Assembly: GCA_001785985.1 (NCBI GenBank)
Contig: MFVE01000005.1
Location: 233,771 to 297,770 of the forward strand
Length of the DNA stretch: 64,000 nt
Direction: 5' to 3'
From: Candidatus Nomurabacteria bacterium RIFCSPLOWO2_01_FULL_42_17
GTDB lineage: Bacteria > Patescibacteriota > Minisyncoccia > Phycocordibacterales > UBA9973
Shown: positions 4,503-49,833 of the stretch, one piece after another
How positions within the stretch are numbered: the stretch's first letter is position 1
How the letters are laid out: every line of letters begins with the position of its first letter
Notes under the pieces: generated by a model
Told to the model about the DNA's origin: nothing
The model's input: the letters and a program-made list of their open reading frames with translations, nothing else
The model's database searches: none
Made by a program: the position numbers and the translations under genes

Positions 4503-4539
4503 CCCCGCCTGCAACGCTTTGCGTAGCATTACGGGCAGG
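4503..4539. repeat. GC-rich palindromic repeat, family A, copy 1 (CCTGCCCGyAATGCT...GCAGGCGGGG)
   Basis: The minus-strand reading, cctgcccgtaatgctacgcaaagcgttgcaggcgggg, shares both termini with the copies at 13660-13698 and 35053-35092. Confidence 0.7.
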
Positions 4540-5785: not shown

Positions 5786-5960
5786 TCATACGGAGTGATA
5801 ATATCACAATTTATCTTTCAATGCAACTTTTTTGGATGGGTGTGGACAGGGTAGTAGATTTTGACGAAGCCCTTTGGGCGCGCTACGCGCATCGCCAAAA
5901 TTCACTACCCTGTGGATAAGTGAGATTGAGGCACTCTATAATAGAGAGTATAATGTGATT

Positions 5961-7178
5961 ATGAAAATTTCTTCTTTAAAAATTTCTTTTGGACTAGCTT
6001 TTTCTTTTTTTTCTTTCTTATTTTTCTTATTCTACTTATTCTCTTTGCCTTTTATCGCGGGAGCTGGAGATGATGACAATATGGCCGGCTACGCTTGGTC
6101 TTCAAACATCGGCTGGATCAGTTTTAATAACACAAGCGGCGGCGGGAGTGTAGATTATGGTGTGAACAAGAACGCTGATGGCACATTAACCGGCTACGCT
6201 TGGTCTTCAAACATCGGCTGGATAAAATTCGGTGGTCTTTCTGGTTTTCCTTCTGGGGCGCAGACATATGCGCAGAATGCAAATGTGAGTGACGGTGAGC
6301 TAAGAGGATGGGCGAGAGCTTGTGCTGGTATGGATGATGAACCGCCTACACCGCCGAACCAAACAACTCCCAATAATACTTGTAGTGGTGATTCACGTAC
6401 TGATGGTTGGGACGGTTGGATCTCTCTTGCTGGCACGGGCTATGGCGTAACTTTGTCCGGTACTAGTTTCGAGGGTTATGCTTGGGGCTCGGATGTTGTA
6501 GGCTGGGTTGATTTTAGTGGTGTTGTTGTCGGCGCCGGCACTGGTACCTGCACTGATAGCACCCAAAATGGAGACGAAACAGGCATTGATGCCGGCGGTC
6601 GTTGCGACGAGGGTACTTGCTCGGATGGCATCCAGAACGGAAATGAAACTGCGGAAGATAGTGGCGGCCGTTGCGGAGCTGGCACCTGCACTGATGGCAG
6701 TCAAAATGGAGATGAAACAGATATTGACACTGGTGGCCGTTGTGACGAGGGCACTTGCTCGGATGGCATCCAGAACGGAAATGAAACTGCGGAAGATAAC
6801 GGCGGCCGTTGCGGAGTTAGCACTTGCTCGGATGATACCAAGAACGGTAATGAAACTGCAGTTGATTATGGCGGTCGTTGTATTGTAGAAGGCGACTGGA
6901 GTGATTGGAGCCCATGCGTGGGCGGTGATCAAACTCGTACTTGTACGAATCCGCCACCTTCCGGCGGTGGAGCTAATTGTAGCGGACCTTCTTCGCGAGT
7001 TTGCGGTTCTTCCGAAGACGGTACTTGTTCCCAAACTCATTACGACTGTTCTTCTCAAGAGACGAGCATCAATCAGATCAGCAGCCCTACCAAGTGGACA
7101 TGGACTTGTCCTGGCTCAGATGGCGGCGCAGATATAATCTGCACCGAAACCAAACGGCCCGGATTTATAGAGGATTAA
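5961..7178 (+). CDS. Secreted Cys-rich repeat protein with thrombospondin-like motifs (pilus-adjacent putative adhesin)
   Basis: The start is moved to the ATG at 5961 (MKISSLKISFGLAF... signal peptide, preceded by tataat). The protein has three GYAWSSNIGWIxF repeats, five to six tandem ~21-aa units of TC(S/T)DGxQNG(N/D)ETxxDxGGRC, and then DWSDWSPCVGGDQTRTCTNPPP..C.G, which resembles a TSP type-1 repeat. Confidence 0.65.
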   Translation: MKISSLKISFGLAFSFFSFLFFLFYLFSLPFIAGAGDDDNMAGYAWSSNIGWISFNNTSGGGSVDYGVNKNADGTLTGYAWSSNIGWIKFGGLSGFPSGAQTYAQNANVSDGELRGWARACAGMDDEPPTPPNQTTPNNTCSGDSRTDGWDGWISLAGTGYGVTLSGTSFEGYAWGSDVVGWVDFSGVVVGAGTGTCTDSTQNGDETGIDAGGRCDEGTCSDGIQNGNETAEDSGGRCGAGTCTDGSQNGDETDIDTGGRCDEGTCSDGIQNGNETAEDNGGRCGVSTCSDDTKNGNETAVDYGGRCIVEGDWSDWSPCVGGDQTRTCTNPPPSGGGANCSGPSSRVCGSSEDGTCSQTHYDCSSQETSINQISSPTKWTWTCPGSDGGADIICTETKRPGFIED

Positions 7179-11844: not shown

Positions 11845-12347
11845 TCAAAGTTACAAATTACAAAAATTTAAACGACGGTTATACAATATTTGAACTTCTG
11901 TTTTATATTTCTTTTTTCGCTCTGCTTTCTTTGTTAGTGATCAATGCGATGGTTACGATGACCAAATCATTTAAGGAAACTGCAATTCAAGCAGAGTTAG
12001 CGCAGAGCGGATCGATTATGGAAAAAATGTCTAGGGAAATCAGGCAAGCCTATGATATAAGTTCGATTAATTCTACTGACTTGAATTTGAATACTACGGA
12101 CAGCGCGGGCGCAGAAAAAACAGTGGAATTTTTACTTTCTGGCTCCAATGTACAATTTTTGGAAAATAGTGTTTTAACTGGCAATTTAAATGCACCGAAT
12201 ATCGTAGTCACGGGTCTCTCATTTACGCAAATAATTACTGCCAAAGGCAAAGCAGTCAAGATAGTTCTTTCTGTTCGCTCCAGTAATGATAGTCTCGCTC
12301 GCGTCCAAGATTTTTATGATACAGTCGTGTTGCGAGGAAACTATTAA
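11841..12347 (+). CDS. Prepilin-like protein
   Basis: NDG|YTIFELLFYISFFALLSLLVINA has the prepilin motif. The ORF overlaps the previous gene by 4 nt. Confidence 0.6.
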   Translation: MIKVTNYKNLNDGYTIFELLFYISFFALLSLLVINAMVTMTKSFKETAIQAELAQSGSIMEKMSREIRQAYDISSINSTDLNLNTTDSAGAEKTVEFLLSGSNVQFLENSVLTGNLNAPNIVVTGLSFTQIITAKGKAVKIVLSVRSSNDSLARVQDFYDTVVLRGNY

Positions 12348-12384
12348 TTATAAAGTTCGTAAAGTAGAAAGTTATAAAGTAAAA

Positions 12385-13641
12385 ATGCAGAAAAAAATAA
12401 AAATAAAAAAAAATAGTGGCGCGGCGATGCTGATATCTGTTATCTTTTTTCTTTTTATTTCCTTGGCAATAATTGCCGGGCTGGTTTCGCCCACCGTTCG
12501 TGAATTCAAGAATGCCAGTGTTAATTTAAATTCAAAGAAATCATATTTCTTGGCTGAATCGGGAGTGGAAGATGCATATTTTCGTTTGAAAACCGCTAAA
12601 ACAATTGGATCCACTGAAACTATTACTTTAGGAGGCAATTCGACTACGACCACGATCACAGATTCGGCATATAATGAGAAGACCATTTCTTCTTTGGGCG
12701 ATGTAAATTCTTTTCAAAGAAAAAGTAAAATTATATTAAATGTCGGGGACGGGGTCTCTTTCAGTTATGGTATTCAAGCTGGGGCTGGGGGCTTTGTTCT
12801 CGGAAATGCAACAATCTTTGGCAATGTTTATTCAAACGGAACTATTATAGGAACTAACGGCGCCACTATCACTGGATCTGCTTTTTCCGCTGGAGCTTCT
12901 GGTCTGATTGATAATATCAATATAGGACTGGCAGGCACAGGGGATGCTAGAGCTCACACTGTTACTGGTTCCACTATTGCTGGCAATCTTTATTGTCAAA
13001 CTGGAACCGGCAACAATAAATCCTGTAATACTTCAGAGCTTGATCCGGATCCAGTCGACATGCCTATTACGGAAGCTATGTTTGATGAATGGAAAGCCGA
13101 TGCTGAATTAGGGGGAACCATTGTTGGTAATTTAACTATCTCGTCGCCGACAACCTTAGGACCTAAAAAGATTACTGGTAATTTAGCCATCAATAGCGAT
13201 CTAACCATTACCGGCACTATTTATGTGGTTGGAAACATAACCACCAACAACGGCGCGGAAGTTTCTTTAAGTAGTTCTTATGAATCTACCGGTGGTATTA
13301 TTGTCACTGATGGACAGGTGACTCTCTCTAATAATGTTATGTTTTTTGGTTCCGGCAGTGAAGGGTCTTATGTGCTACTGACGACCACCAGCGCTTGTCC
13401 CTCTGGATGTTCTGGCGTAAATGCGATGGAGATTTTAAATAACGTCGGAGCAATACTTGTAAATGCTCAAAATGGTACGGTGCATCTAAACAACAATGTC
13501 GAATTAAGTGAAGTGGTGGGGTACAAAATTATCGTGGATAATAGCGCGGAGGTGACTTACCTATCTGGTTTAGCAAACACTCTTTTTACTTCGGGTCCTT
13601 CCGGCGGATGGGATATTACAAGCTGGGGGGAAGCTCAATAG
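12385..13641 (+). CDS. Large pilus-associated protein (N-terminal TM helix, Gly/Thr/Asn-rich beta-helix-like repeats); possible tip adhesin or minor pilin
   Basis: The start is moved to the ATG at 12385 (MQKKIKIKKNSGAAMLISVIFFLFISLAIIAGLV). Repetitive G/N/T-rich sequence follows. It is the last gene of the pilin cluster. Confidence 0.5.
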   Translation: MQKKIKIKKNSGAAMLISVIFFLFISLAIIAGLVSPTVREFKNASVNLNSKKSYFLAESGVEDAYFRLKTAKTIGSTETITLGGNSTTTTITDSAYNEKTISSLGDVNSFQRKSKIILNVGDGVSFSYGIQAGAGGFVLGNATIFGNVYSNGTIIGTNGATITGSAFSAGASGLIDNINIGLAGTGDARAHTVTGSTIAGNLYCQTGTGNNKSCNTSELDPDPVDMPITEAMFDEWKADAELGGTIVGNLTISSPTTLGPKKITGNLAINSDLTITGTIYVVGNITTNNGAEVSLSSSYESTGGIIVTDGQVTLSNNVMFFGSGSEGSYVLLTTTSACPSGCSGVNAMEILNNVGAILVNAQNGTVHLNNNVELSEVVGYKIIVDNSAEVTYLSGLANTLFTSGPSGGWDITSWGEAQ

Positions 13642-13659
13642 ATTAGCTTGTAGCTTGTA

Positions 13660-13698
13660 CCTGCCCGCAATGCTGAAGCATAGCTTTTGCAGGCGGGG
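13660..13698. repeat. GC-rich palindromic repeat, family A, copy 2
   Basis: cctgcccgcaatgctgaagcatagcttttgcaggcgggg. It is nearly identical to the copy at 35053-35092. Confidence 0.7.
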
Positions 13699-13721
13699 TT
13701 TGTAGGTGTTAGAATGAAATA

Positions 13722-14504
13722 ATGGCAAAGAAAATTATTATTGGTAATTGGAAAATGAATCCACTTACATTTAAAGAGGCGGAAAAAATTTTTAAATCTG
13801 TACTACAAGCTACGCACTACAAGCTAACTGCTGAAATAGTTATCTGCCCGCCATTTATTTATCTTGAGTCGTTTTCACGTTTACTACAAGCTACACGCTA
13901 CAAGCTAAAACCTAGTTTAGGCGCGCAAGACGCTTTTTGGGAACAAACGGGCGCTTTTACCGGAGAAGTTTCAGCAGAGATGCTCTATGGCGCTGGCGCT
14001 AAATATGTAATTTTAGGGCATTCGGAAAGGCGAGCAATGGGGGAGAATGACAATGATGTAAATCAAAAAATAAAAGCATCACTGCGAGCTGGCCTCATAC
14101 CGATACTCTGCGTGGGGGAAAACGTGCGAGATGAAAATCATGATTATTTTAATCTGGTCAAAACGCAGTTGCGGGAATGTCTGGCGGGGGTTTCTAAAAA
14201 CTCAATTGCAAAAGTTATTATCGCCTACGAGCCGGTCTGGGCTATCTCTACGACGATCGGCCGCAAAGATGCGACGGCTGTCGACTCTCTCGAAATGTCT
14301 ATTTTTATTCGTAAAGTGCTTTCCGATAAATTTGGTTCTGATGCCGAGAAGACGAAGATTATTTATGGTGGCTCGGTGAATGAGAAAGACGCTGGTGAAT
14401 TTTTGAAAAATGGTGGCGTGGATGGTCTTCTCGTCGGTCGCGCGAGTTTGGATGCTAAAAAGTTTTCTGAGATTATTCATATCGCTGAAAATTTAGTAAA
14501 GTGA
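13722..14504 (+). CDS. tpiA: Triosephosphate isomerase
   Basis: GNWKMN, GHSERR, AYEPVWAI, YGGSV. It contains an in-frame tandem duplication (LQATHYKLTAE / LQATRYKLKPS). Confidence 0.9.
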   Translation: MAKKIIIGNWKMNPLTFKEAEKIFKSVLQATHYKLTAEIVICPPFIYLESFSRLLQATRYKLKPSLGAQDAFWEQTGAFTGEVSAEMLYGAGAKYVILGHSERRAMGENDNDVNQKIKASLRAGLIPILCVGENVRDENHDYFNLVKTQLRECLAGVSKNSIAKVIIAYEPVWAISTTIGRKDATAVDSLEMSIFIRKVLSDKFGSDAEKTKIIYGGSVNEKDAGEFLKNGGVDGLLVGRASLDAKKFSEIIHIAENLVK

Positions 14505-14514
14505 AGTTTTTGCA

Positions 14515-14554
14515 TGGTCTGGCCGGGGTGGGGGGCCCCGGGGAACCGAGGACC
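14515..14554. repeat. GC-rich 40-nt palindromic repeat, family B, copy 1 (intergenic tpiA-pgk)
   Basis: tggtctggccggggtggggggccccggggaaccgaggacc. It is identical to the copy at 16584-16623. Confidence 0.8.
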
Positions 14555-14591
14555 TGAAAAAATTTTACTTTACTAAACTTTTTGTAAAAAC

Positions 14592-15728
14592 ATGCGAAGC
14601 ATTGAACAAATAAAAAATATAAAAGGAAAAACTGTACTTTTGCGGGTGGATTTTAATGTACCTATGAAGCCTGCCCGCCGAAGAGGAGGGGACGGCGTGG
14701 TGGAGGATGATTTTCGAATTAAAAAAGCTCTGCCGACGATAGAATTTTTACAGAAAAAAAATGCAAAAATAATTTTGATTACGCATTTAGGGACTGGCGG
14801 AGAGACTTTGGCCGGAGTGGCAAAAGTTTTAAATAAATTTATCAAAGTTACTTTTGTCCCCGAAATTGTTGGCCCAAAAGTTTCGCAGGTGGTTCGAGAC
14901 ATGAAAGAAGGCGAGGTAATCTTGTTGGAAAATTTGAGGAATGATAAGGGAGAAAAAGAATGTAACGAAATTTTTGCGATGAGTTTGGCAAAATTAGCCG
15001 ATATTTATGTAAACGAGGCTTTCCCTGTTGATCACAGAGAGGATGCTTCTATTGTTCTCTTGCCAAAGCTATTGCCTGCATACGCAGGTATCCAGTTATC
15101 CGAGGAAGTGAAAAACTTATCTCGCGCTTTCAAAAATTCCAAGCACCCCTTCTTATTTATTTTAGGTGGAGCTAAATTTTCCACTAAAATGCCTTTAATC
15201 GAGAAGTATTTGAAATTATCAGATTATGTTTTCGTCGGCGGAGCGCTGGCGAATGATTTTTTGAAAGCGCGTGGATATGAGATAGGCAAATCCCTTTTTG
15301 ATAACACTGATTATGATTTTAAAAAAGTATTAAAGAATCCAAAACTTATTTTACCAGTTGATGTTGTTGTCAAAAAAGGAGATAAATCAATTAATAAAAA
15401 GATAAACGAGATAGAAAAAGATGAAAACATTTTAGACATTGGAGAAGAGTCTGTGAAAAATCTTAGTCTACTTATTAAAAAGTCTAAATTTATATTATGG
15501 AATGGACCACTGGGTAAATATGAAGACGGCGGAGCAGAGTCTACGAAAGAAGTATTAAAATTGGTTGCAGCTTCAAAAGCGGAAAGTATTATCGGCGGAG
15601 GAGATACAGTCGCTCTAATCACCCAGATGAAAATGGAAAAAGATTTTTCTTTTATATCAACTGGTGGTGGAGCGACGCTAGATTTCCTCGCAGACGGCAC
15701 TCTGCCCGGCATCAAAGCGCTTGAGTGA
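14592..15728 (+). CDS. pgk: Phosphoglycerate kinase
   Basis: VLLRVDFNVP, a hinge and the C-terminal nucleotide-binding domain (GGGDT, GGGA). 378 aa. Confidence 0.9.
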   Translation: MRSIEQIKNIKGKTVLLRVDFNVPMKPARRRGGDGVVEDDFRIKKALPTIEFLQKKNAKIILITHLGTGGETLAGVAKVLNKFIKVTFVPEIVGPKVSQVVRDMKEGEVILLENLRNDKGEKECNEIFAMSLAKLADIYVNEAFPVDHREDASIVLLPKLLPAYAGIQLSEEVKNLSRAFKNSKHPFLFILGGAKFSTKMPLIEKYLKLSDYVFVGGALANDFLKARGYEIGKSLFDNTDYDFKKVLKNPKLILPVDVVVKKGDKSINKKINEIEKDENILDIGEESVKNLSLLIKKSKFILWNGPLGKYEDGGAESTKEVLKLVAASKAESIIGGGDTVALITQMKMEKDFSFISTGGGATLDFLADGTLPGIKALE

Positions 15729-16065
15729 TTTTTTGAGCGTTTCCTTTTAGATCTTTTTCATTGCCAGTAATTTCTGGCCAGACCCAGATATGGGCATGAG
15801 GAATTTCTTCCCCATAAATTTGAGAGCGGACGATTTCCGCGTTAAATGCTTTTTTCTGAGCCAAAGCTATTTTTTTAGCAACTTCAAAATATTCTCCAAC
15901 ATTTGGCACATCCCAAACCCATCTATAATGTTGTTTCGGTATTATCTGGGTATGTCCCGCGGCTTTCGGATGTATGTCTAAAAAAGCCAAAAAGTTTTCA
16001 TCTTCGTAGACTATTTCGGCCGGTATTTCTTTTTTAACTATTTTACAAAAAATACAATCATTCAT
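15712..16065 (-). CDS. HIT-family (histidine triad) hydrolase
   Basis: CIFCKI...YEDENFLAFLDIHPKAAGHTQIIPKQH. The 3' end overlaps pgk convergently by 17 nt. Confidence 0.75.
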   Translation of the reverse strand: MNDCIFCKIVKKEIPAEIVYEDENFLAFLDIHPKAAGHTQIIPKQHYRWVWDVPNVGEYFEVAKKIALAQKKAFNAEIVRSQIYGEEIPHAHIWVWPEITGNEKDLKGNAQKITQAL

Positions 16066-16101
16066 AAGTATATTGTATCAAATTATGTTAAAATTTTCTC
16101 T

Positions 16102-17856
16102 ATGTCTGAATTACTTGATATTTTGCTTGAAAAAAGGGGGATTACACCCGAACAGAAAGATATTTTTTTGAATCCGGATTACAAGCGAGATTTACACGAC
16201 CCTTTTTTGATGCGAGATATGGAAAAGGCCTGCGTACGACTCTATGAAGCAATAGATAATAAAGAAAAAATCTTAATTTATGCGGATTATGATTGCGATG
16301 GGATACCCGGAGCGGTGATTTTGAATGACCTTTTTAAATTGATAGGGTATAAAAATTATGAAGTTTATATTCCGCAAAGAAATTCCGAAGGCTATGGACT
16401 CAATCTGGAAGCAATAAAAAAATTTGCTGAATCAGGCGTGAAACTTCTGATCACGATTGACCTCGGCATTACAGCCGTAGCGGAAGTGGCTCAAGCAGAA
16501 GTGGATGGCATTGATGTGATAATTACAGACCATCACTTGCCTCGCCTAGCTCAAAAAGATTCGCAAGCAGAGGATTTTCGAGCTGGTCTGGCCGGGGTGG
16601 GGGGCCCCGGGGAACCGAGGACCCGAGAAAATCCTCTGGTTGCTGAATCTTTCATTCTTCCTCGTGCTTGTGCAATCTTGAATCCGAAGGTAGACAGTTA
16701 TCCCGAAAAGATGTTGTGCGGGGCGGGGGTTGTTTTCAAATTTGTACAGGGATTTATAAAAAAATATGGCGAATATTTTAAGATTCGAGAGGGCGCAGAA
16801 AAATGGATGTTAGATATGGCTGGGCTCGCGACGCTTTCTGATATGGTTCCACTAACAGGAGAGAATAGAGCTTTGGCGTATTTTGGAATGAAGGTGTTAA
16901 AGAAATCTCCTCGTCCGGGCTTGCAAAAACTTTTAGCCAAGATGAATATTGAGCAGAAATATCTCTCGCCGGACGATATAGGCTTTATGGTTACGCCACG
17001 GCTGAACGCCGCGTCTAGGATGGATGATCCGATGCGGGCGTTTGAACTTTTGGCGACAGAAGACGAAGCGCAAGGTGGGATACTCGCGAATCATTTGTCT
17101 AAAATAAATGATGAAAGGAAAACCATTGTGACAAGTATCATGCGAGAAGTTCATAAGAAATTTGAAACGGAAACGACGTCTGAGGTGATAGTGATAGGCA
17201 ATCCGAAATGGCGAGTCGGCATCCTCGGATTAGTAGCGGGAAAAATTTGTGATCAATATGAAAAGCCCGTCTTTGTTTGGGGTAAAGATGAGAATGATTG
17301 CATCAAGGGGTCTTGTCGGAGCGATGGCTCGGTCTCGGTGGTAGAACTCATGACTGAAACTGCGGGATCTTTTATAGATTTTGGCGGTCATGAGCTGGCT
17401 GGGGGTTTTACGGTTGAAACTGAGAAAATTCATTTCTTACAAGAGCAATTGTCTTTGAATTTTAAAAAAGTGAAGCGAGATAAACTGGATGATATCGCAA
17501 ATTATGATATTAAGTCCGGCTTAGATATTGTCAATATGAAAAGCTGGCGTGAAATAGAGAAGCTTGAGCCTTTCGGACTGGGTAATTCCAAACCCATCTT
17601 CCTTTTTGAGGGAGCAAAAATAGAAAAAATAAAAAAATTCGGCAAAAATGGCTCTGGCGAGCATTTGGAAATTATTTTTTCTGATTCATCTAATTCTCAC
17701 GGTAAAAAAGCTAAAGCTATTTCTTTTTTCTCTAATATTGATTCTTTTAAAAAGAAATTGGAAGAAGGACTTGGTGTAAATTTGCTCGCCACTTTTGATT
17801 TATCTAGATTTAGAGGTAGGGAAGAGCTAAGATTGCGGATAGAAGATATTTTTTAA
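16102..17856 (+). CDS. recJ: Single-stranded-DNA-specific exonuclease RecJ (DHH/DHHA1)
   Basis: DYDCDGI and ITDHH motifs and a DHHA1 C-terminal region. It carries the in-frame 40-nt GC-rich repeat, translated as AGLAGVGGPGEPRT. Confidence 0.85.
   Translation: MSELLDILLEKRGITPEQKDIFLNPDYKRDLHDPFLMRDMEKACVRLYEAIDNKEKILIYADYDCDGIPGAVILNDLFKLIGYKNYEVYIPQRNSEGYGLNLEAIKKFAESGVKLLITIDLGITAVAEVAQAEVDGIDVIITDHHLPRLAQKDSQAEDFRAGLAGVGGPGEPRTRENPLVAESFILPRACAILNPKVDSYPEKMLCGAGVVFKFVQGFIKKYGEYFKIREGAEKWMLDMAGLATLSDMVPLTGENRALAYFGMKVLKKSPRPGLQKLLAKMNIEQKYLSPDDIGFMVTPRLNAASRMDDPMRAFELLATEDEAQGGILANHLSKINDERKTIVTSIMREVHKKFETETTSEVIVIGNPKWRVGILGLVAGKICDQYEKPVFVWGKDENDCIKGSCRSDGSVSVVELMTETAGSFIDFGGHELAGGFTVETEKIHFLQEQLSLNFKKVKRDKLDDIANYDIKSGLDIVNMKSWREIEKLEPFGLGNSKPIFLFEGAKIEKIKKFGKNGSGEHLEIIFSDSSNSHGKKAKAISFFSNIDSFKKKLEEGLGVNLLATFDLSRFRGREELRLRIEDIF
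16584..16623. repeat. GC-rich 40-nt palindromic repeat, family B, copy 2 (in-frame inside recJ)
   Basis: An exact copy of 14515-14554, positioned by counting codons from the recJ start. Confidence 0.8.
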
Positions 17857-17877
17857 TACTAATGATAAGATAAACTT

Positions 17878-18384
17878 ATGCCAGAGAAGAAAGGAGAAAA
17901 AATTACTATTTATACTGATGGCGCGGCAAAGGGGAATCCTGGGAGTGCCGGCTGGGGCGCGGTAATTATTTCCCATAATGACAAGTTGAAAGTTGAAAGT
18001 GAAAAGTTGAAAGTGGTAGAGATAGGTGGGAAAGTAGATCATGCAACAAACAACCAAATGGAATTAACCGCGCCAATAGAAGCGCTGAAATATCTAAAGA
18101 ATACAGAGGTTAAACCTATGTATTTAGAGATAATTTCCGACTCTAAATATGTAATACTTGGGATTACCGAATGGATTTTCAACTGGCAGAAAAATAATTG
18201 GCGGAATGCTAATAAAAAACCGGTTTTAAACCGCGAACTCTGGGAAGAATTGTATTCGCTCGTGTCGGCATTGAAACCAAGATGGACCTATGTCAAAGGC
18301 CACAATGAAGACAAATACAACGATCGCGCGGACCTCATCGCCACCAGTTTCGCGGAAGGCGAACCAGTGGAACTTAAAAAATGA
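17878..18384 (+). CDS. rnhA: Ribonuclease HI
   Basis: ITIYTDGAAKGNPGSAGWGAVI, HATNNQMEL and GHNEDKYNDRAD. It has an in-frame GTTGAAAGT-type tandem repeat coding KLKVESEKLKVVE. Confidence 0.85.
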   Translation: MPEKKGEKITIYTDGAAKGNPGSAGWGAVIISHNDKLKVESEKLKVVEIGGKVDHATNNQMELTAPIEALKYLKNTEVKPMYLEIISDSKYVILGITEWIFNWQKNNWRNANKKPVLNRELWEELYSLVSALKPRWTYVKGHNEDKYNDRADLIATSFAEGEPVELKK

Positions 18385-19922
18385 GGGATAGAATTTTTTA
18401 TGTAGTTTGTTTTGGTTTTATTTTTGGAGTGCTTTGGCGATCTTTTTTATTTATAGATTTATATTTAGTTTTACTTATTTTTCTGTTAGCATTAGCCTTA
18501 CTTCTCTACTTTAGCGCACTAAAGAACTTTAGTTCGATAAAGTATCGCTGGGATATAATATCGACCGTCTTTGTTTTAACTTTTTGTCTGGGAATTTTTC
18601 GATTTCATACGGTTGATGTGCCGGCGTCTAGAATTTTCGCATTGCAAATAGATCAAAAAGTATCTTTTTCTGGAATTATTATAGACGAACCGAATATTAG
18701 AGAAAATAATCAAAAATTAACTATAAGGACGGTCCTTAAAGAAGTTTCCCCAAGGACCGTCCTTGAAAAACCGGCTAAAACAAAAATTCTAGCTACCGTG
18801 AATCTCGGGGAGAATTTTAAATATGGCGATGAAGTTAATTTTTCGGGTAAATTAGAAAAACCAGAGAATTTTGTTACCGATCAAGGCAAAGATTTTGATT
18901 ACATAAATTATTTACGCAAAGATGGGATTTTTTATGTGATGAGTTATCCGGAAATTGAAATTGTCTCGCGCGGAAATGGAAATAAAATAAAAAGCACCCT
19001 GTTTTCTATCAAAGAAAAATTTTTAGAAAAAATGAATTTAGCGATCAAGCCGCCTGAATCGCTCTTGATGGGTGGGCTTATTTTAGGAGAGAAAGCTTCT
19101 TTCAGTCAGGAGCTCAGGCAAGATTTCATCGACACTGGCACGATCCATATCGTGGCTCTCTCTGGCTACAACATCACCATCATTGCGGAATGGATCATGA
19201 AATTATTTTCAAAAGTTCCTTATGTGGCAAAAAATTTTGGCATCGGCATGGGTATTTTTGCAATTTTTCTTTTCGTATTGATGACGGGTGCTAGCTCTAC
19301 TGCGATACGAGCGGGGATCATGGCGATCTTAGCACTCGTCGCTCGCGCGACTGGTAGGAATTATGATGTCGCTCGAGCTCTGATCTTGGCGGCGGTGGGA
19401 ATGATTTTATTAAACCCCTTTATTCTCGTCTATGATGTTTCTTTTCAGCTTTCTTTTATCGCCACCGTCGCGGTAATATTCCTCACGCCCAGAATTGAAA
19501 AATATTTTCTCTGGGTGACAGATTCTTTCAAGCTACGAGATGTAGTGTCAGTGACTTGCGCCGCGTATATTTTCGTTTTGCCTTTTATTCTGTATAAAAT
19601 GGGCAATCTTTCGCTGGTCGCCTTGCCGGCAAACATTTTTATTTTACCCTTTATTCCTTTCACGATGGGCTTGGGTTTTTTGACCGGCTTGCTGGGTCTG
19701 ATACATTATATTTTAGCCGTGCCTGCGGGCTACATTTCATATTTGTTTTTACACTATGAGCTCAGCATCATAAGTTTTTTTGCAAATCTGCCATTCGCCT
19801 CATTTATCATTCCAAATTTTCCGCTCATCTTAACGATTCTGATTTATGTCTATTTTATTTACCGACTTTTTGGCAGAAATATAAAGAATTTTTTTATTGA
19901 CAAACAGGGCATCACCTGTTAA
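18381..19922 (+). CDS. comEC: Competence protein ComEC/Rec2, membrane channel part (DUF4131 plus Competence domain), without the MBL domain
   Basis: Polytopic membrane protein with DTGTIHIVALSGYNITII (the ComEC signature). It ends with a stop before any MBL domain. Confidence 0.8.
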   Translation: MRDRIFYVVCFGFIFGVLWRSFLFIDLYLVLLIFLLALALLLYFSALKNFSSIKYRWDIISTVFVLTFCLGIFRFHTVDVPASRIFALQIDQKVSFSGIIIDEPNIRENNQKLTIRTVLKEVSPRTVLEKPAKTKILATVNLGENFKYGDEVNFSGKLEKPENFVTDQGKDFDYINYLRKDGIFYVMSYPEIEIVSRGNGNKIKSTLFSIKEKFLEKMNLAIKPPESLLMGGLILGEKASFSQELRQDFIDTGTIHIVALSGYNITIIAEWIMKLFSKVPYVAKNFGIGMGIFAIFLFVLMTGASSTAIRAGIMAILALVARATGRNYDVARALILAAVGMILLNPFILVYDVSFQLSFIATVAVIFLTPRIEKYFLWVTDSFKLRDVVSVTCAAYIFVLPFILYKMGNLSLVALPANIFILPFIPFTMGLGFLTGLLGLIHYILAVPAGYISYLFLHYELSIISFFANLPFASFIIPNFPLILTILIYVYFIYRLFGRNIKNFFIDKQGITC

Positions 19923-19980
19923 AAAGAGTTTAAATAGTAGTTGACAACAAAAAACAACAAAGCAGAAAGAGAGCGCAGTT

Positions 19981-20991
19981 ATGAAAAAAATAAAAAACCA
20001 GTCGAGCGTCAAGCTTGGAGTGGTAATGGTTCACCGTGGCTTCAATGCGCACAAGATGAATGGTAATCGCTTCGATTATGTGGTCGGGCTCGACTGGCTG
20101 ATTAAGCATTCACCCGTCGAGATCAGCGCGGTTCAGGTCCCCCTGTTTCCGGATCATCTCCGTGAAGGCAAGGGACTTGCCAAAACCAAGAGGCTTTTCA
20201 AGGAGCTGAGGAAACGCGTGAGATATGTTGTTCCTGTTCTGATGCTAACTACGAATCCACTCGATCCAAAAAACAAGTCGGAGGCGATAGAAACTCTTCG
20301 CAACGGTCTGGTGCAGTCTGGTGAACTTGGATCTGAGGTCTGTGCTGCAACATCCTTCGAGGCGTGGCTTGATGGAACCATTAATGGTCTAAAGCCGCTC
20401 AAGGGCAAAAAACTCAGGAAGGCGATTGATCTTCTGGTGGATATCCATGTCAGTGCAATACACGCTGCATATCAAGAGAGGTGTGGTGTGCAACGCTTGG
20501 ACATGGAGTATTTGCGTCCTGGTGAGTTCATCACCTTTACGAACATGCGCATCGCGCTTCGGGTGATTGGTGAAATCAATCGGAAATTGCAATGTGGCTT
20601 CATTTGCCGTCTACTCGACGACACTGCTCACGCCAAGGATTCCGGTCTCTCCATGAAAGATCAAAACAAAGTGCGGGGTATTTGTTCTTGTTCTGATAAT
20701 CATCATATAGGTACATGTCACGCATCCGAACCCACTACTCGTGGCGCACTTGGTAGCGGAGGTTCTGCTGTGGTGCAAGGCATTCGTTCCATGTACCGCC
20801 ATGGAAATCCTCGTACTCTCATGGTTGAAATCTTTGATTGTGAGGGGGAAGAAACGGCGCCGATGCGCCAGTACATCAAAGGATATGGGAAAAAGACCTA
20901 CCGTGACATCAACGTCGCCGTGGTAGAGGGTCTCATCCTGGTCCAGAATACTCTCAACCAGCTTGCTGGTGAAAGAAATCTCCTGGACTAA
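19981..20991 (+). CDS. Hypothetical protein, 336 aa, on a GC-rich (~50%) segment; no family recognised
   Basis: A long ORF with a compositional shift relative to its neighbours. It has an RBS-like agaaagagag upstream and a terminator hairpin downstream. Confidence 0.5.
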   Translation: MKKIKNQSSVKLGVVMVHRGFNAHKMNGNRFDYVVGLDWLIKHSPVEISAVQVPLFPDHLREGKGLAKTKRLFKELRKRVRYVVPVLMLTTNPLDPKNKSEAIETLRNGLVQSGELGSEVCAATSFEAWLDGTINGLKPLKGKKLRKAIDLLVDIHVSAIHAAYQERCGVQRLDMEYLRPGEFITFTNMRIALRVIGEINRKLQCGFICRLLDDTAHAKDSGLSMKDQNKVRGICSCSDNHHIGTCHASEPTTRGALGSGGSAVVQGIRSMYRHGNPRTLMVEIFDCEGEETAPMRQYIKGYGKKTYRDINVAVVEGLILVQNTLNQLAGERNLLD

Positions 20992-21010
20992 ACAAAATAT
21001 CGAAATCAAA

Positions 21011-21044
21011 CACCCCGGATAGCAATATCTGGGGTGCCTTTTTT
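21011..21044. terminator. Bidirectional terminator hairpin between the 19981 gene and the SOD gene
   Basis: caccccggata-gcaa-tatctggggtg followed by ccttttttatttt. The T-tract overlaps the SOD stop codon. Confidence 0.55.
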
Positions 21045-21636
21045 ATTTTGCTTTAGCAAAATTTTCTTCTATTACCTCCCAATTTAGATTTTCAAAAAAA
21101 GCTTCCACATATTTTTTCTTTTCGGAAGTTGGATAATCATATACGAAGGCGTGTTCCCACATATCGAGTCCGAGTATCCATTCCACACCGTTTAATTGTC
21201 CCAAATGCTGTTCGTCTATCCAGATGTGCACAAACTGGTCTGTTTTCTTGTCATAGCCCAAAACTGCCCAACCCACTCCGCGCGTCATGGCCAATATTTT
21301 AAAACTAGTCAGCCATAAATCAAAAGAAGGGGCCTGTTTTTCTATCGCCGCTTTCAATTTAGAATTTGCGGGCAGTGCTTTCTTTCCGCCTTCAAGAGAT
21401 TTGAAATAATATTCGTGATTTCTGATTCCGTTAAATTCGAAACTAAATCTTCTCTGCAATTCCCCGAGAATGTACATATTTTTTTCCGGGTCCGACATCA
21501 ATTCTCCTATTTTCTCCACGATTAAATTAGTGCTTTTCACATAGCCCGCATACAGCTTCAAATGTTCTTCTACATTTTTGGCCGATATGCCTTCGAGTGT
21601 CCCAATATTAAATTTTATTTCTTCAAATTTTTTCAT
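21043..21636 (-). CDS. sodA: Fe/Mn superoxide dismutase
   Basis: HEYYFKSLEGG and DMWEHAFVYDY (the DxWEHAYY motif). 197 aa. Confidence 0.88.
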   Translation of the reverse strand: MKKFEEIKFNIGTLEGISAKNVEEHLKLYAGYVKSTNLIVEKIGELMSDPEKNMYILGELQRRFSFEFNGIRNHEYYFKSLEGGKKALPANSKLKAAIEKQAPSFDLWLTSFKILAMTRGVGWAVLGYDKKTDQFVHIWIDEQHLGQLNGVEWILGLDMWEHAFVYDYPTSEKKKYVEAFFENLNWEVIEENFAKAK

Positions 21637-21652
21637 ATGCTAACATTATACC

Positions 21653-22522
21653 ATGATTCGAGACAAGAAAGGTTATGGTTTATTTATATTTGTTTTAATT
21701 CTGATTGCAATAAATATTTTCTTGTTTCATCAAGATTTTCGTTCTTTGGAAAAGAATCTTACTTTTGCGATGCTGGATGTTGGCCAGGGCGATGCGCTTT
21801 TTATCGAGTCGCCGACCGGTACGCAAATATTGATAGACGGAGGACCGCCCGGGAAAATAATGGGCGCTTTGCACCGCGTCATGTCTCCATTTGATAGACG
21901 GATAGATGCAATCATTATTACCAACCCAGATCAAGATCATATTGGCGGCTTTGCTGATATTCTGAAAGTTTATAAAGTGAATGGAGTATTTGAGCCTGGC
22001 ACGTTTAATGATTCTAAAATTTATCAAAATCTGAAAGAAGAAATAAAAAATAAAAATATTCCGGATATTTTAGCGAAAAAAGGGATGCGGCTTCATATCG
22101 GAGGCGGAGCGGTGATCGATATTTTATTTCCTGATCGCGATGTCTCGTTGTGGGATACAAATGATGGTTCAGTCGTGGCAAGGCTCTCTTATGGCGAGAC
22201 GTCTATAATGCTTACTGGTGACTCAACTTCAATAACAGAGAAAATAATTCTCAAAGAAAATTCTCCTGCGCGACTAGAGAGCACTATTTTGAAAGTTGGA
22301 CATCATGGTTCACGCACTTCTACTTCTCACGATTTTGTTAAAGCAGTTTCCCCGAAGTTCGCGCTTATCTCAAACGGCAAAGACAATAAATATGGTCATC
22401 CGCATCAGGATACACTGAGTACTTTAGCTCAGTTTGGCGCTAAAATTCTACGTACAGACCTGCTCAGAACTATTGTTGTTAAATCAAATGGATCCATGTT
22501 AAGATGGGAACATGCGAGATAA
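21653..22522 (+). CDS. ComEC-type MBL-fold metallo-hydrolase domain protein (standalone ComEC C-terminal domain with an N-terminal TM helix)
   Basis: FAMLDVGQGDALFIESP...ILIDGG, ITNPDQDHIGG, GHHGSRTS and HPHQDTL are the characteristic motifs of the ComEC Lactamase_B domain. Confidence 0.8.
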   Translation: MIRDKKGYGLFIFVLILIAINIFLFHQDFRSLEKNLTFAMLDVGQGDALFIESPTGTQILIDGGPPGKIMGALHRVMSPFDRRIDAIIITNPDQDHIGGFADILKVYKVNGVFEPGTFNDSKIYQNLKEEIKNKNIPDILAKKGMRLHIGGGAVIDILFPDRDVSLWDTNDGSVVARLSYGETSIMLTGDSTSITEKIILKENSPARLESTILKVGHHGSRTSTSHDFVKAVSPKFALISNGKDNKYGHPHQDTLSTLAQFGAKILRTDLLRTIVVKSNGSMLRWEHAR

Positions 22523-35037: not shown

Positions 35038-38000
35038 ATGGCTGAAAAAGAACCTGCCCGCAATGCTTTCAGCATAGCTGATGCAGGCGGGGAAAAAAGT
35101 AATAAGAGTGATGTAGCGCTTCCAGCCTCCGCTGGTAGCTCTGGCGTGGCGAAGCGCGAGGAAGCAATTTTGCAGTTTTGGAAGAAGAATAAAATTTTCC
35201 AGAAATCTTTAGATAAAAATTCACCAAAGGGGAATTATGTTTTTTATGATGGTCCGCCTTTCGCTACCGGCCTGATACATTATGGACACATTTTAGGGAG
35301 TACTGCCAAAGATGCCGTGGCGCGTTATCAGACGATGAGGGGATATCATGTGCCTAGAAAGTGGGGCTGGGATTGTCATGGACTTCCGATTGAAAACATT
35401 GTTGAAAAAGATTTGAATATTGCCGGACATAAGGAAATAGAAAAGATTGGTATAGATAAATTTGTCGAACATGCGCGGAGTCTTGTCTTGCAATACGATA
35501 AGGAATGGGAAAGCGGGGTAGAGCGCATCGGACGATGGGTGGACTTTCGGGGCGGATACAAAACGATGGACAATACTTTCATCGAATCCGTCTGGTGGGC
35601 GTTTAGCGAGCTAAATAAAAAAGGACTTATCTATGAAGGGGTGAGAGTTCTGGCCTATTGCGCAAGATGCGAGACGCCGATCGCGAATTCCGAAATTGCG
35701 ATGGATAACAGCTATAAAGATATTGCGGATCTTTCTATTTATGTAAAGTTTGAACTGGAAAATGAATCGGGAACATATCTGCTTGCTTGGACCACCACTC
35801 CGTGGACATTGCCGGGGAACACTGCGATTGCGGTAAATAAAAATATTACATATGTAAAAGTGAGAATAGGAAATGATGTGTTGATACTTGCAAAAGACAC
35901 CCTCCAGAATGTATTAAAAGAAAAAGAATATTCTGTGGTAGAGGAAATCAAAGGGAGTGAATTAATAGGCAAAAAATATAAACCGGTATTTCCATACTAT
36001 CGGAATGTTGATCTGCCAAATAAAGAAAACATTTGGAAGGTCTGGTCGGCGGATTTCGTGACGACCGAGAAAGGTACGGGGATCGCGCACGAAGCGCCGG
36101 CTTTCGGCGAGGACGATATGAATCTGGCAAAGCAGTATAGTATTCCCTGGATTATTCACGTGGATGAGACGGGCAGATTTAAGCCCGAAGTTACTGATTT
36201 TTCTGGTTTAAAAGTCAAACCAAAAGATACGCCGGAAGACAAAGATGCGCATATGCGGAGCGATATTGAAATCATTAAATATCTGCAAAAAACCGGAGCA
36301 TATTTTGATAAAGAAAAAATAATCCATTCATATCCGCATTGCATGCGTTGCGATACGCCGATTATTTATTACGCGCTGCCATCCTGGTTCATAAATATTC
36401 AGAAAGTTAAAAAAAATATTTTGAAAAGAGCTGAGAGTATGAATTGGGTTCCTGCACATCTAAAAGAGGGCAGATTTAAAAATATAGTCGAAAATGCGCC
36501 TGATTGGAATGTGTCCAGAAATCGTTACTGGGCTTCGCCTTTACCCGTCTGGAAATGTGAAAAATGCACCGAACAAGTTTTTATTAGTTCGCTCGCAGAT
36601 CTGAAAGTCAAAACAAAAAAGTCCGGTAATAAATATTTTGTAATGCGGCACGGGGAGGCGGAAAATAACGCAAAAAATATTTATTCTTCCAACCAGAAAA
36701 TAAACCACCTGACAGAAAAAGGTCGCACGCAAGTCCTGCAGACGATAGGGCACCTAAAAAGTAAAAAAATCACTAAAATATATTGTTCACCTTTTTTGCG
36801 TACCCGCGAGACGGCGCAAATGGTAGCCGAGAAAATTGGTTTTCCGCTCGAGAAAATTATTTACGATGACAGAATTCGCGAATTAGAATTTGGTGATTTT
36901 TCAGAGCGTCCGGTTTCGGATTACTGGGATTATATGAAAGACAAAATATGGGAATTTGATAAAAAAGTTCCCGGAGGGGAAAGTTTTCAGGATGGCAAGA
37001 ATCGTATTGGAAATTTTCTGTACGATATCGATCAGAAAAATAAAAATGAGTGCATCCTGATCATCTCTCATGGCATTGCAGTCGAGATGGTGCCAGCGGT
37101 GATCGAAGCAGCTGATAAAAAGCGTTCAGCAGAAGTTTTTCATTTGCATATGAAAAATAAAACTGCAGAATTGCATCGTGAACATGAATTTTCTCCTCTT
37201 CCACATAATGCAAATTATGAACTAGATTTTCATAGACCCTATATAGATGAGATAAGACTCGTTTGCAGTTGTAAATCCGAAATGAAGAGAGTGCCCGAAG
37301 TTTTAGATTCTTGGTTGGAGTCTGGTTCCATGCCTTTTGCGCAGAATCACTATCCATTTGAAAATCGAGATTGGCAGAAGAATAATTTTCCGGCTGGTTT
37401 CGTGGCGGAATATATCGCGCAGACCAGAACATGGTTTTATTATACTCATGTGCTCTCGACAATTCTCTTTGATCATGCACCATTTGATAATGTGGTCACC
37501 ACTGGCACGCTGCTCTCGGAAGATGGTCAGAAAATCTCAAAATCTAAAAAGAATTATCCAGACCCATGGATATTTATAGATAAGTATGGAGTGGACGCGC
37601 TTCGTATGTATCTGATGACGAGTCCCCTAATGAAAGGCGAAGATGCAAACTTCTCCGAAAAATTAGTACAGGAAATTTCAAGTAAAATTATCGGAAGACT
37701 TGGTAATGTGGTTTCTTTCTATGAACTCTACCCCGCGCCAGAGCAAGCCAGGTACGAGGCAGGTAGTGATGTTAAAAAGTCTGGAGATATCTTGGATAAA
37801 TGGATTCTGGCGCGATTGAATCAACTGGTGAGTGAAGTTACAAACGGCATGGAAGCCTACGATATGAATGAAGCCTCTCGCCCCATCGAGGGCTTCATTG
37901 AGGATCTTTCTGTGTGGTATCTGCGTCGTTCCAGAGAGCGAATAAAAGATGGGGACAAGGAAGCGAAACAGACTTTATATTTTCTACTAAAAACCGTGGC

Positions 38001-48493: not shown

Positions 48494-48534
48494 ATAGCAA
48501 TACATAGGTTTAACCTATGTATTGCTTAAACTAT

Positions 48535-49816: not shown

Positions 49817-49833
49817 CCTATGTATTTCAATTT

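Follow-up and report, generated by a model that had tools for sequence, protein, structure and literature searches.

A 40-nt GC-rich sequence present twice in the window, by which we mean the whole 64-kb stretch of Candidatus Nomurabacteria DNA analysed here, is probably the conserved apical core of a family of non-autonomous, hairpin-forming DNA elements in Patescibacteria (Paceibacteria/Nomurabacteria). The elements have a common anatomy, they reside in frame in essential genes, and at the tpiA locus sequence comparison identifies one of the two arms as native.

In an exact search of the window the 40-mer, TGGTCTGGCCGGGGTGGGGGGCCCCGGGGAACCGAGGACC, was found at positions 14515-14554 and 16584-16623, both on the plus strand and with 0 mismatches, in agreement with the earlier note, which had reported an identical repeat with one intergenic copy and one copy in recJ. 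No further match with up to 3 mismatches was found in the window, and 100 dinucleotide shuffles gave 0 matches. A covariance-model search with filters off (model R1; 82.8 bits, E = 9e-23 for core copy 1 and 86.5 bits, E = 6e-24 for core copy 2) did not reveal any degenerate third copy in the 64 kb. The identity between the two copies ends at the 40-mer (49 nt at 96%), and the intergenic copy is thus not part of a longer duplicated segment.

The GC content of the 40-mer is 80%, as compared to 40.5% for the window, in line with the earlier description of a hairpin of about 80% GC. However, the 40-mer alone folds no better than shuffled sequences (z = -0.6 as RNA, -0.8 as DNA), and a significant hairpin is obtained only when the flanks are included (76-81-nt stretches, z = -3.2 to -4.2). 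The hairpins that contain these stretches span about 94-98 nt (14488-14581 and 16555-16652) with AT-rich arms of about 27-30 nt, and the proper unit is a hairpin of about 75-105 nt rather than the 40 nt first proposed. Neither copy was called in a terminator scan of the window, and the hairpins are not terminator-like in either orientation since, whichever strand is read, the T-run comes before the hairpin and the A-run 3' of it. No Rfam 15 family matched the window at the gathering threshold, and none overlapped either copy at E <= 10.

Core copy 1 (14515-14554, with the G-rich strand on plus) is located between tpiA (13722-14504) and pgk (14592-15728), and the flanking arms at 14488-14514 and 14555-14581 (both plus strand) form a 27-nt inverted repeat (I3) with 85% complementarity. 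The left arm comprises the native last codons of tpiA (..ENLVK) and the stop codon (14488-14504), followed by AGTTTTTGCA (14505-14514), which includes the T-run. The right arm, TGAAAAAATTTTACTTTACTAAACTTT, includes the A-run together with the 3' end of tpiA in inverted copy. That this 3' end is native is seen from TIM homologues, which finish in ..IAENLVK or ..IAENL.K, and from the orthologous DNA in the element-free locus L059. The spacer between tpiA and pgk comprises 87 nt in the window (14505-14591, plus strand) versus 18 nt, TTTTTTTTAATTAAAAAT, in L059, where the right-arm sequence is absent, and the element accounts for about 70 extra bases. As read from this comparison, the left arm belongs to the native gene, and the right arm is its inverted copy.

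In L001, L003, L005, L051 and L052 the two genes have no spacer and instead overlap by 22 nt. A 109-nt insertion that split an ancestral 22-nt overlap and supplied TIM with a new C-terminus was considered and rejected, because ..IAENL.K followed by a stop is a common native TIM C-terminus, and because the orthologous locus of L059 is element-free with a spacer of 18 nt. The comparison with L059, the one well-defined empty site, reveals what may be a direct repeat, AGTTTTTGCA / ACTTTTTGTA, the first copy of which lies inside the hairpin.

Core copy 2 (16584-16623, plus strand, exact match) is located inside recJ (16102-17856, plus strand), which is intact with DHH, DHHA1 and RecJ_OB domains and open through the element. 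The core is translated in frame as (A)GLAGVGGPGEPRT, the in-frame reading of the 40-mer itself being AGLAGVGGPGEPRT. The full hairpin of 98 nt (16555-16652, plus strand) has the arms AAAGATTCGCAAGCAGAGGATTTTC(GAGC) and (CGA)GAAAATCCTCTGGTTGCTGAATCTTT around the core and contains an inverted repeat (I13) of 17 nt at 94%. The 81-nt stretch 16565-16645 folds with -40.9 kcal/mol as RNA (z = -3.3) and -21.6 kcal/mol as DNA (z = -4.2), and the 162-nt segment from DHH to LNPK, with the whole hairpin inside, folds with -61.0 kcal/mol.

Codons 146-185 of recJ (16537-16656, plus strand) read LPRLAQKDSQAEDFRAGLAGVGGPGEPRTRENPLVAESFI, where insert-free orthologues have five residues (LSQEI). The insert thus follows immediately on the DHH motif and amounts to 35 additional codons (105 nt), and comparison at the DNA level with L001 gave the same difference of 105 nt. 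The 14 residues noted earlier are the middle part of this insert; the suggestion of a length-compatible, in-frame insertion is correct as to the frame in recJ but not as to the unit, since 40 nt is not a multiple of three and the inserted unit is 105 nt. The peptide is not conserved in RecJ orthologues: in the alignment about 110 of 120 close homologues (74-84% identical) do not have the long insert, and many of these read DHHLPQEI-LPRAYAILNPK. Solved RecJ structures have 4 residues at this position versus 39 in the window (the PDB alignment skips query residues 146-184). An AF2 model of the protein, of low overall quality (mean pLDDT 58.6), shows coil with pLDDT <50 for residues 147-188, a weak hint that the insert may be a floppy, disordered loop of 35 residues.

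Six orthologous copies in recJ were found independently of the search pattern used for the family, and the core is intact in only two of these; in recJ orthologues the core is seen to degenerate, its apex being replaced or deleted, in genes that are themselves retained. Distance clustering of RecJ proteins was star-like and uninformative as to one or several gains of the insert; the insert-bearing proteins are scattered in the clustering, and their arms are homologous. Some RecJ proteins have short inserts of 8-11 residues (RQSVISGGLAFD, RLAQVGHASFD), which were considered as core-less arms; their DNA is not clearly palindromic.

The same core was found at unrelated loci, genic as well as intergenic, in many Patescibacteria genomes. 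In total 27 distinct copies were identified in about 15 Patescibacteria genomes and contigs (GTDB genomes, JGI contigs), and none in IMG/VR viral contigs. The search pattern required 26 fixed bases, and the conservation of the core is therefore partly a matter of ascertainment. Fifteen of the copies are in frame within long open reading frames (PolA, LeuRS, IleRS, ThrRS, PheT, UvrD, LigA and RecJ), where the core encodes Gly/Pro-rich linkers, and the remaining 12 are intergenic. The genic copies are found both sense (9) and antisense (6) to transcription, and all six frames are used. The core is free of stop codons in six of six frames in 25 of the 27 copies. The host frame is open through the element in 15/15 genic copies, compared to only about one third of the frames in the intergenic ones. 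The IleRS of L014 has 75 nt extra relative to the window and L053, and most relatives have no element at the recJ, tpiA-pgk and IleRS sites. Copy number is low, with 1-3 exact cores per genome (2 in the 64-kb window), unlike a typical selfish burst. A literature search on palindromic or MITE-like in-frame elements in CPR/Patescibacteria returned nothing relevant.

These data bear on one alternative, i.e. that the two 40-mers are a product of chance, low complexity or faulty assembly, or that the peptide is a selected protein module. The GC-richness and lowish complexity of the 40-mer, and the fact that on its own it folds no better than shuffled sequences, are compatible with such an origin. 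On the other hand, the shuffles contained no match, the core with its paired flanks recurs in independent NCBI, JGI and ENA assemblies, and the use of all six reading frames, together with the 12 intergenic copies, argues that no single peptide is selected. This alternative is refuted by these observations and we regard it as extremely improbable.

The core is an asymmetric GC-rich hairpin of about 39-40 nt (GGTCCTCGGTTCCCYGGGG-loop-CCCCRGCCAGACC on the C-rich strand), with a bulged structure in which 12 conserved pairs were modelled. Around the core there is a small internal loop, with a T-run on the 5' side and an A-run on the 3' side, and then outer AT-rich arms of about 15-30 nt that pair with each other and differ at every locus. 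Only the central 40-60 nt, i.e. the core with its short T-run and A-run flanks, are conserved among copies. The mean duplex energy was -26.3 kcal/mol for arms of the same copy versus -10.1 kcal/mol for arms of different copies. Differences between cores are concentrated in the 3-4-nt loop (alignment A2), and the core stem exhibits compensatory C-G to U-A double changes. Four of seven same-genome pairs have identical cores, compared to 5.8% of between-genome pairs (permutation p = 0.002).

The centre can also be found in the opposite orientation at the same site: the recJ element of the window matches that of L003 at 79/103 positions as the reverse complement and at 66/103 in the forward direction. 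Inversion between L001 and L003 is also seen for another hairpin family, in the HIT-recJ spacer, and at least three or four hairpin families co-exist in one genome. Relative to empty sites, both arms seem to be extra at recJ, IleRS, LigA and, in L044, the HIT-recJ spacer, and a model with one native arm and one inverted copy is therefore incomplete.

The window also encodes a RAYT-like Y1 transposase (49118-49816; PF01797, E = 1e-8) with HUH and catalytic Tyr motifs, and some of its homologues have been named 'REP element-mobilizing transposase RayT' by JGI. The core hairpin might then be the substrate of an HUH/Y1 transposase of the RAYT type, cut and pasted like REP/REPIN elements, with the diversity of the arms being secondary. 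The core is indeed an imperfect, bulged GC-rich palindrome like the REPs (20-40 nt), and the hairpin variant is uniform within genomes and different between genomes, which resembles the pattern of REPs that co-evolve with their own RAYT. However, the GC core never brackets a RAYT gene, neither in the window nor in two other genomes (L056, L057). The window gene is instead bracketed by AATACAKAGGTTWAACCTATGTATT, and the bracketing palindromes in the three genomes (AATACATAGGTTAAACCTATGTATT, TTACACAGGGnnnCCCTGTGTAA, GTAGCAAGGGnnnCCCTTGCTAC) are simple and 25-29 nt long, i.e. of another family. The RAYT homologues are syntenic (MetRS-x-RAYT-TatD), no Y1 gene is present within 3.5 kb of any of the 27 copies, no REP doublet is formed, and over half of the copies lie inside genes, in contrast to REPs. 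Furthermore, Y1 transposition leaves the locus-specific arms, and the arm copied from the target flank, unexplained. No link between the RAYT gene and the core was thus found, and we consider mobilisation by such an enzyme unlikely. In an all-against-all BLAST of open reading frames up to 3.5 kb from the copies only host genes recurred, and no mobilising enzyme or recurrent transposase-like neighbour was found within this distance of any copy.

The conservation of the core raises the question whether it is instead a functional hairpin selected by the host, e.g. as an mRNA-structure element or as the site on DNA or RNA to which a conserved factor binds, and recruited at several loci rather than being selfish DNA. 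Across species-level genomes the core shows strong conservation together with compensatory stem changes, and stems are kept by compensatory change also between orthologous copies (PolA in L008/L029; recJ in L003/L005/L053). The low copy number, and loop variants common within a genome as with a co-evolving trans-acting reader, point in the same direction. A strand-specific RNA function would, however, not tolerate both orientations relative to transcription, the copies do not keep to conserved positions, their host genes are essential but unrelated, the core decays in recJ orthologues although the gene is retained, and no Rfam family was matched. Taken together these observations make a host-selected function quite unlikely.

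The preferred reading, that of a non-autonomous element family, assumes an element that would act at the DNA level and whose copies would survive only where they are harmless, i.e. in spacers, or in frame where a surface loop of the protein tolerates them. One of the window copies would have expanded the tpiA-pgk spacer, and the other would have added 35 residues to RecJ after the DHH motif. We propose that copy-choice or gene conversion transfers the core of an existing copy to a new site or into an old hairpin, which would keep the cores identical within a genome. Fold-back (template-switch) synthesis, in which the flank at the site is copied inverted, would then create or lengthen the outer stem in place, and this would make the arms locus-specific and let the centre flip. 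Such a copy-choice and fold-back mechanism is tentatively put forward as one possible explanation, and it is weakened by the short homology available for core-to-core conversion (about 40-55 nt). A wider version is more speculative still: transposase-free, 'self-assembling' palindromes, with cores copied between loci by template switching at T-runs and locus-specific stems made by fold-back, might together with sister families continually write Gly/Pro-rich loops into aminoacyl-tRNA synthetases and replication and repair enzymes in CPR populations.

The closest analogues of the Patescibacteria element appear to be the Rickettsia palindromic elements (RPEs) and the GC clusters of yeast mitochondria. 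RPEs are found in spacers and in frame in housekeeping genes, where they are translated as an extra peptide compatible with the fold; each RPE encodes a conserved peptide, and 44 copies are present in R. conorii (PMC10969869). The RPE, a hairpin-forming repeat from a genome that is likewise reduced and AT-leaning, has a length of about 100-150 bp, not far from the hairpins of about 94-98 nt described here, and the in-frame location of 15/27 Patescibacteria copies, e.g. in aminoacyl-tRNA synthetases and enzymes of DNA metabolism, is a further likeness. RPE copies share a consensus over their whole length, whereas in the Patescibacteria element only the central 40-60 nt are conserved and the arms are locus-specific, which sets the two apart by description. 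Moreover, RPEs number dozens per genome as compared to 1-3 exact copies here, the present element uses six frames with no single conserved peptide, and RPE hosts are Alphaproteobacteria and not Patescibacteria.

Mitochondrial GC clusters (e.g. GC42 and the 48-nt cluster in var1/rps3) are GC-rich palindromes of about 40 nt in an AT-rich genome, which change mostly in the loops with stems kept, form species-specific variants and spread by recombination; one is found within a protein gene, and the mechanism of mobility is unresolved (PMC4478555). The Patescibacteria element shares the size, the GC-rich palindrome in an AT-rich genome, the loop variation, the compensated stem and the genome-specific variants. 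The clusters are, however, organellar and mostly intergenic with a putative short target duplication (AG/TAG), whereas the present element belongs to a free-living-type bacterial lineage and has a long, locus-specific AT-rich stem that is not defining for GC clusters.

MITEs (e.g. Correia/NEMIS, ERIC and Nezha) and MIRUs also resemble the element, being dispersed repeats that are small, non-coding and capable of forming hairpins. MIRUs sit at gene junctions within operons, as does the tpiA-pgk copy. MITEs are defined by terminal inverted repeats that are conserved, by a target-site duplication of fixed length and by a parent IS, and some fuse in frame with genes. In the Patescibacteria element the termini are variable and no related IS was found within 3.5 kb of the copies, and since conservation is confined to the centre, with ends that are specific to each locus, the element is no classical MITE. 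Of the MITE/REP-like character suggested in the earlier note, a small mobile palindrome that tolerates translation remains, but neither a classical MITE nor the REP of the RAYT-like gene in the window.

The inserts inflate and diversify housekeeping proteins of the CPR, and they should be masked by annotators and phylogeneticists; they are also usable as strain-level markers. The conserved centre, the locus-specific arms, the arm copied from the target, the homogenised cores and the flipping provide a handle on how such elements arise, which is likewise an open question for the mitochondrial GC clusters. It is from Rickettsia that essential genes with palindromes inserted in frame are best known, and yeast mitochondria offer a related case. 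The Candidate Phyla Radiation constitutes a third, unrelated group with reduced, AT-leaning genomes where in-frame palindromes are found, which supports the view that such insertions generally result where genome reduction and hairpin-prone mobile DNA come together.

The 40-mer TGGTCTGGCCGGGGTGGGGGGCCCCGGGGAACCGAGGACC was found at 14515-14554 and 16584-16623, exact and on the + strand in both cases, with no further match at ≤3 mismatches in the window; 100 shuffles produced no match either. By ORF calling and Pfam, the first copy lies between tpiA (13722-14504) and pgk (14592-15728) and the second inside recJ (16102-17856; DHH, DHHA1 and RecJ_OB domains), confirming the earlier note, which had reported an identical repeat in these two settings. 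The repeat, with 80% GC as compared with 40.5% for the window, is a real feature beyond chance. Its description as a 40-nt hairpin unit needs correcting: the 40-mer alone folds no better than shuffles. Significant folding, both as RNA and as DNA (z = -3.2 to -4.2), requires the flanks, which supply a long additional stem of complementary arms in each copy: AAAATTTAGTAAAGTGAAGTTTTTGCA / TGAAAAAATTTTACTTTACTAAACTTT at the tpiA-pgk copy (27 nt, 85% complementary) and GCAAGCAGAGGATTTTC / GAAAATCCTCTGGTTGC at the recJ copy (17 nt at 94%, reaching ~29 nt per arm). The arm sequences of the two copies are unrelated; identity ends at the 40-mer, and beyond it the copies share just a loosely similar YGARAAAAT immediately 3'. 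On both strands a T-run lies 5' and an A-run 3' of the hairpin. Neither window copy received a terminator-like call, and the element had no Rfam match. The element is a hairpin of ~100 nt with the 40-mer as its centre, and the original interpretation was correct in essence yet understated.

The RecJ matches place the host in Patescibacteria (Candidatus Nomurabacteria/Paceibacterota), and another window protein matches Candidatus Nomurabacteria bacterium RIFCSPLOWO2_01_FULL_42_17 at 100%. The core in recJ reads in frame as AGLAGVGGPGEPRT, and RecJ would carry the segment ..AEDFRAGLAGVGGPGEPRTRENPLV... In an alignment of 120 RecJ homologues (74-84% identity) many read DHHLPQEI-LPRAYAILNPK, with 5 residues where the window protein has 40; at the DNA level the window carries 105 more bases than the relative L001. 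The alignment to solved RecJ structures covers both flanks of the insert and skips query residues 146-184, and a poor AF2 model has residues 147-188 as coil with pLDDT <50. The peptide, without counterpart in many homologues and in the solved structures, is accordingly an insertion as proposed. The insertion is in frame, albeit 40 nt could not form an in-frame unit by itself.

Five other homologues have a long insert at the same RecJ site, with homologous arms (..QENFLGSS...QLENSLA.E.F..). In the relatives L003, L005 and L053 the orientation is opposite to that in the window, and against the L003 hairpin the window one has 79/103 matching positions as reverse complement vs 66/103 forward. L003 retains an intact core with compensatory changes, L005 has a replaced apex and L053 a deleted one, and the arms remain paired in all three. 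The site is a permissive hot spot, since a second, unrelated hairpin family occupies it in L052 and the homologue P0074, and short inserts of 8-11 residues are found there in many other homologues. The second family also has a conserved GC core (TCTCCCGCCTTCGCCCTCGG..GACAGGGGACCCACGGCTCC, peptide KNSPAFALG...) and AT-rich, locus-specific arms, with copies in recJ of L052 (10481-10590), ligA of L019 (~5095) and an intergenic region of L017 (~4008); LigA of L019 also carries a copy of the 40-mer's own family. A second RecJ hot spot lies ~10 residues downstream, with inserts of 13-14 residues (VSGVSVDGTPHDSA and similar) and shorter ones (DPRQGGAS, DPDDTVGAG), in the homologues P0017, P0029, P0031, P0032 and P0117 (after ..AILNPK) and P0042, P0059 and P0088.

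The HIT-recJ spacer, adjoining recJ, is another insertion hot spot. It measures 28-40 nt in five relatives, holds a GC-core element in L044 (4138-4209), and contains a hairpin of ~120 nt from a different family in L001 (9878-10000) and L003 (9860-10000). Between the latter two a 79-nt centre is inverted (47/79 matches forward, 74/79 as reverse complement). The centre thus flips between orthologous sites, both in the GC-core family (recJ) and in the different family of the HIT-recJ spacer.

At the other window locus, tpiA and pgk overlap by 22 nt in five syntenic relatives (L001, L003, L005, L051 and L052). A 109-nt insertion giving a new TIM C-terminus was ruled out: the clade has two native TIM C-termini, ..KICEALNK and ..KIAENL.K, each followed by the stop, and the window ending ..HIAENLVK is of the second type. 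L059, the proper comparator, has orthologous tpiA 3' DNA, an 18-nt spacer TTTTTTTTAATTAAAAAT and the same pgk start ATGCGAAGC. The window spacer is 87 nt vs 18 nt in L059, and therefore has ~70 nt extra. One arm is target-derived: the left arm consists of the native last tpiA codons, the stop and the T-run, and the right arm, its reverse complement, is without counterpart in L059. At this locus at least, the locus-specific stem was thus built from target sequence. When window positions 14476-14620 were compared with L001, L003, L005, L051, L052, L053 and L059, the genes were either overlapping by 22 nt (TIM ..KICEALNK) or separated (TIM ..KIAENL.K). The separated form keeps the old overlap sequence (G)TAAAAAYATGCG before pgk, which suggests that it arose via duplication of the overlap segment.

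The GC-core elements belong to one family of hairpins, dispersed and conserved at the centre. Scans of GTDB (one genome per species, 19 nt of core) and of JGI metagenome contigs (gapped pattern) gave 27 distinct copies after removal of duplicates and of chance matches in high-GC genomes; IMG/VR gave none. All copies share the core GGTCCTCGGTTCCCYGGGG-CCCnnnnCCCCRG-CCAGACC, a small internal loop, and the T-run 5' and A-run 3' of the core. The paired arms are locus-specific, as each outer arm (15-30 nt) pairs with its own partner but does not do so across copies (mean duplex energy -26.3 kcal/mol for own arms vs -10.1 kcal/mol between copies). A covariance model built from the family found only the 2 known copies in the window, also with filters off, and one more copy, a degenerate one, in L015, where it lies in the gene for UvrD.

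Residence in essential genes is compatible with translation: 15 copies lie within long ORFs, open and in frame every time, with hosts encoding PolA, LeuRS and LigA (2 species each), IleRS, ThrRS, PheT, UvrD and RecJ. The LigA copies of the two species share the same zinc-finger site and differ in arms and frame. Nine genic copies are sense and six antisense, and the core is read in all six frames, giving peptides such as GLAGVGGPGEPRT, WSGRGGGPRGTEDL, GSSVPRGPKPRPDQ, VLGSPGPLAPARP and GPRFPGAPHPGQT. The core is stop-free in every frame in 25/27 copies. With 28 nt added on each side, ~2/6 frames are open in intergenic copies, while the host frame is open in 15/15 genic copies (chance ~0.33^15), which argues that the genic copies are translated rather than spliced or bypassed. 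IleRS, where the relative L014 has 25 residues more than the window and L053, provides a third clean empty site, and insertion status is established at three loci.

Variation in the core is focused in a loop of 3-4 nt, and one stem pair (Y/R) shows a joint C-G to U-A change in L003, L014, L022 and L045. Cores evolve in concert: they are often identical within a genome despite different arms (the window, JBAYFP01, JAZKJK01 and contig Ga0265296_1000371), with identity in 4/7 same-genome pairs vs 5.8% of between-genome pairs (permutation p = 0.002). Across genomes, the orthologous LeuRS copies of L009 and L025 differ in the loop, and the PolA copies of L008 and L029 have the same loop and differ in one adjoining stem base. 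The identical pair in the window thus reflects a core, without its arms, that was homogenised within the genome or recently copied.

The main rival explanation is that a Y1 single-strand transposase of the RAYT type mobilises the GC core, and the window does encode such a protein (49118-49816, + strand, 232 aa, IS200-like, PF01797; HUH motif MPNHFHILI, Tyr motif YIYSYIHLNPAK). However, the palindromes that flank this gene and its syntenic homologues are different, simple ones, in no case the GC core, and none of the 27 GC-core copies has a Y1 neighbour within 3.5 kb. Perfect 25-nt palindromes AATACAKAGGTTWAACCTATGTATT (own palindrome AATACATAGGTTAAACCTATGTATT) bracket the window gene, at 48499-48523, 49100-49124 and 49802-49826, the downstream one containing its stop codon; a fourth (18100-18124) lies within the RNase H gene and is read as NTEVKPMYL in a variable loop. 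Homologues in L056 and L057 have the same MetRS-x-RAYT-TatD synteny and their own species-specific bracketing palindromes, and the whole resembles a REP/RAYT system that CPR bacteria inherit vertically. That the GC-core element is a host-selected functional motif is less likely, as its orientation is not fixed, its sites lack conservation and recJ orthologues show decay of the core.

For the copying of the element we infer a scheme without a dedicated enzyme. Copy-choice or gene conversion would bring in the core from an existing copy, the only homology shared being the T-run/A-run and the core ends; fold-back (template-switch) synthesis by the nascent strand would make the outer stem, or lengthen it, in place, and recombination between the arms would invert the centre. 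Such a scheme would account for the architecture but does not explain everything, because at recJ, IleRS, LigA and the L044 spacer the empty sites appear to lack both arms, native sequence being involved in only the outermost 6-8 nt.

Other repeats and features were seen in the window and in relatives. A separate family of GC-rich hairpins (36-39 nt, CCTGCCCGCAATGC..AGCATAGCT..TGCAGGCGGG, in-frame reading PARNAxSIAxAGG) has two window copies, at 35053-35091 (+, ileS N-terminus) and 4504-4539 (-), and copies in L019 (1285), L014 (5184) and L023 (737, 3254, 3548, 3806 and 7278; five in 8 kb, three inside pheT). Window IleRS also has an 11-residue insert GPAFAEGYSEAR near its C-terminus, missing from L014. 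Codons 27-34 of pgk (14670-14693) comprise an extra 24-nt GC-rich segment CCTGCCCGCCGAAGAGGAGGGGAC (PARRRGGD), missing from PGK of L001, L003, L005 and L059; its start resembles the PARNA-type hairpin, of which it may be a truncated member. Another hairpin repeat, ACCTCACCCCAGCCCTCTCCTTATAAAGGAGAGGG, is in frame in metG (47753-47792, MetRS peptide TSPQPSPYKGEGG) and recurs in opposite orientation at 51970-52061, in the spacer upstream of 52069-52650, beside a related second hairpin; a similar peptide, SQPSPGQERAKGE, occurs in an RNase H loop of L005. A 68-nt hairpin in the spacer upstream of nusA (5846-5913; arms ACAGGGTAGTAGATTTTG / CAAAATTCACTACCCTGT, GC-rich centre) may be one more element in which paired arms enclose a GC core. 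The 434-aa ORF at 5874-7178, without Pfam match, contains four tandem 69-nt units (23 codons, 67-87% identity) at 6536-6880, and in GC content this region is the highest kilobase of the window. The gene at 39369-39929 lies between two 36-nt palindromes, perfect or nearly so (39324-39359 and 39942-39977), that have the same ends (ATAGCA...CGG|CCG...TGCTAT) and could be paired operator-like or recombination sites. The window further holds a complete MmeI-family type IIL restriction-modification enzyme (30026-32728, all five MmeI domains). Compared with L001 it has an inserted 336-aa ORF (19981-20991, 49.5% GC, no Pfam match) that separates comEC from sodA. In L005, comEC is truncated by an integrated element (12278-21752) encoding a large serine recombinase, two N6/N4 methyltransferases and a Prim-Pol/AAA_25 primase.

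The GC-core family is like Rickettsia palindromic elements, hairpin repeats residing in frame within housekeeping genes (PMC10969869), but differs from them in having no whole-length consensus. A second likeness, given a GC-rich core of 40 nt within an AT-leaning genome, is to the GC clusters of yeast mitochondria, for example GC42 and the 48-nt var1 cluster; in both, change is biased to the loop, variants are specific to a genome and exchange is mediated by recombination (PMC4478555). The likeness to MITE/REP elements drawn in the earlier note is apt for a small mobile palindrome; a classical MITE would have conserved termini, which the family lacks, and a parent IS, of which no sign was found within 3.5 kb of any copy, and the lack of RAYT bracketing and of a strictly extragenic location sets it apart from REP/RAYT systems. 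No description of such elements in CPR/Patescibacteria was found in the literature, most subscription journals being outside the scope of the search. The family is phylum-wide and resides in essential genes, and its architecture, a conserved core with self-made arms, is unusual.
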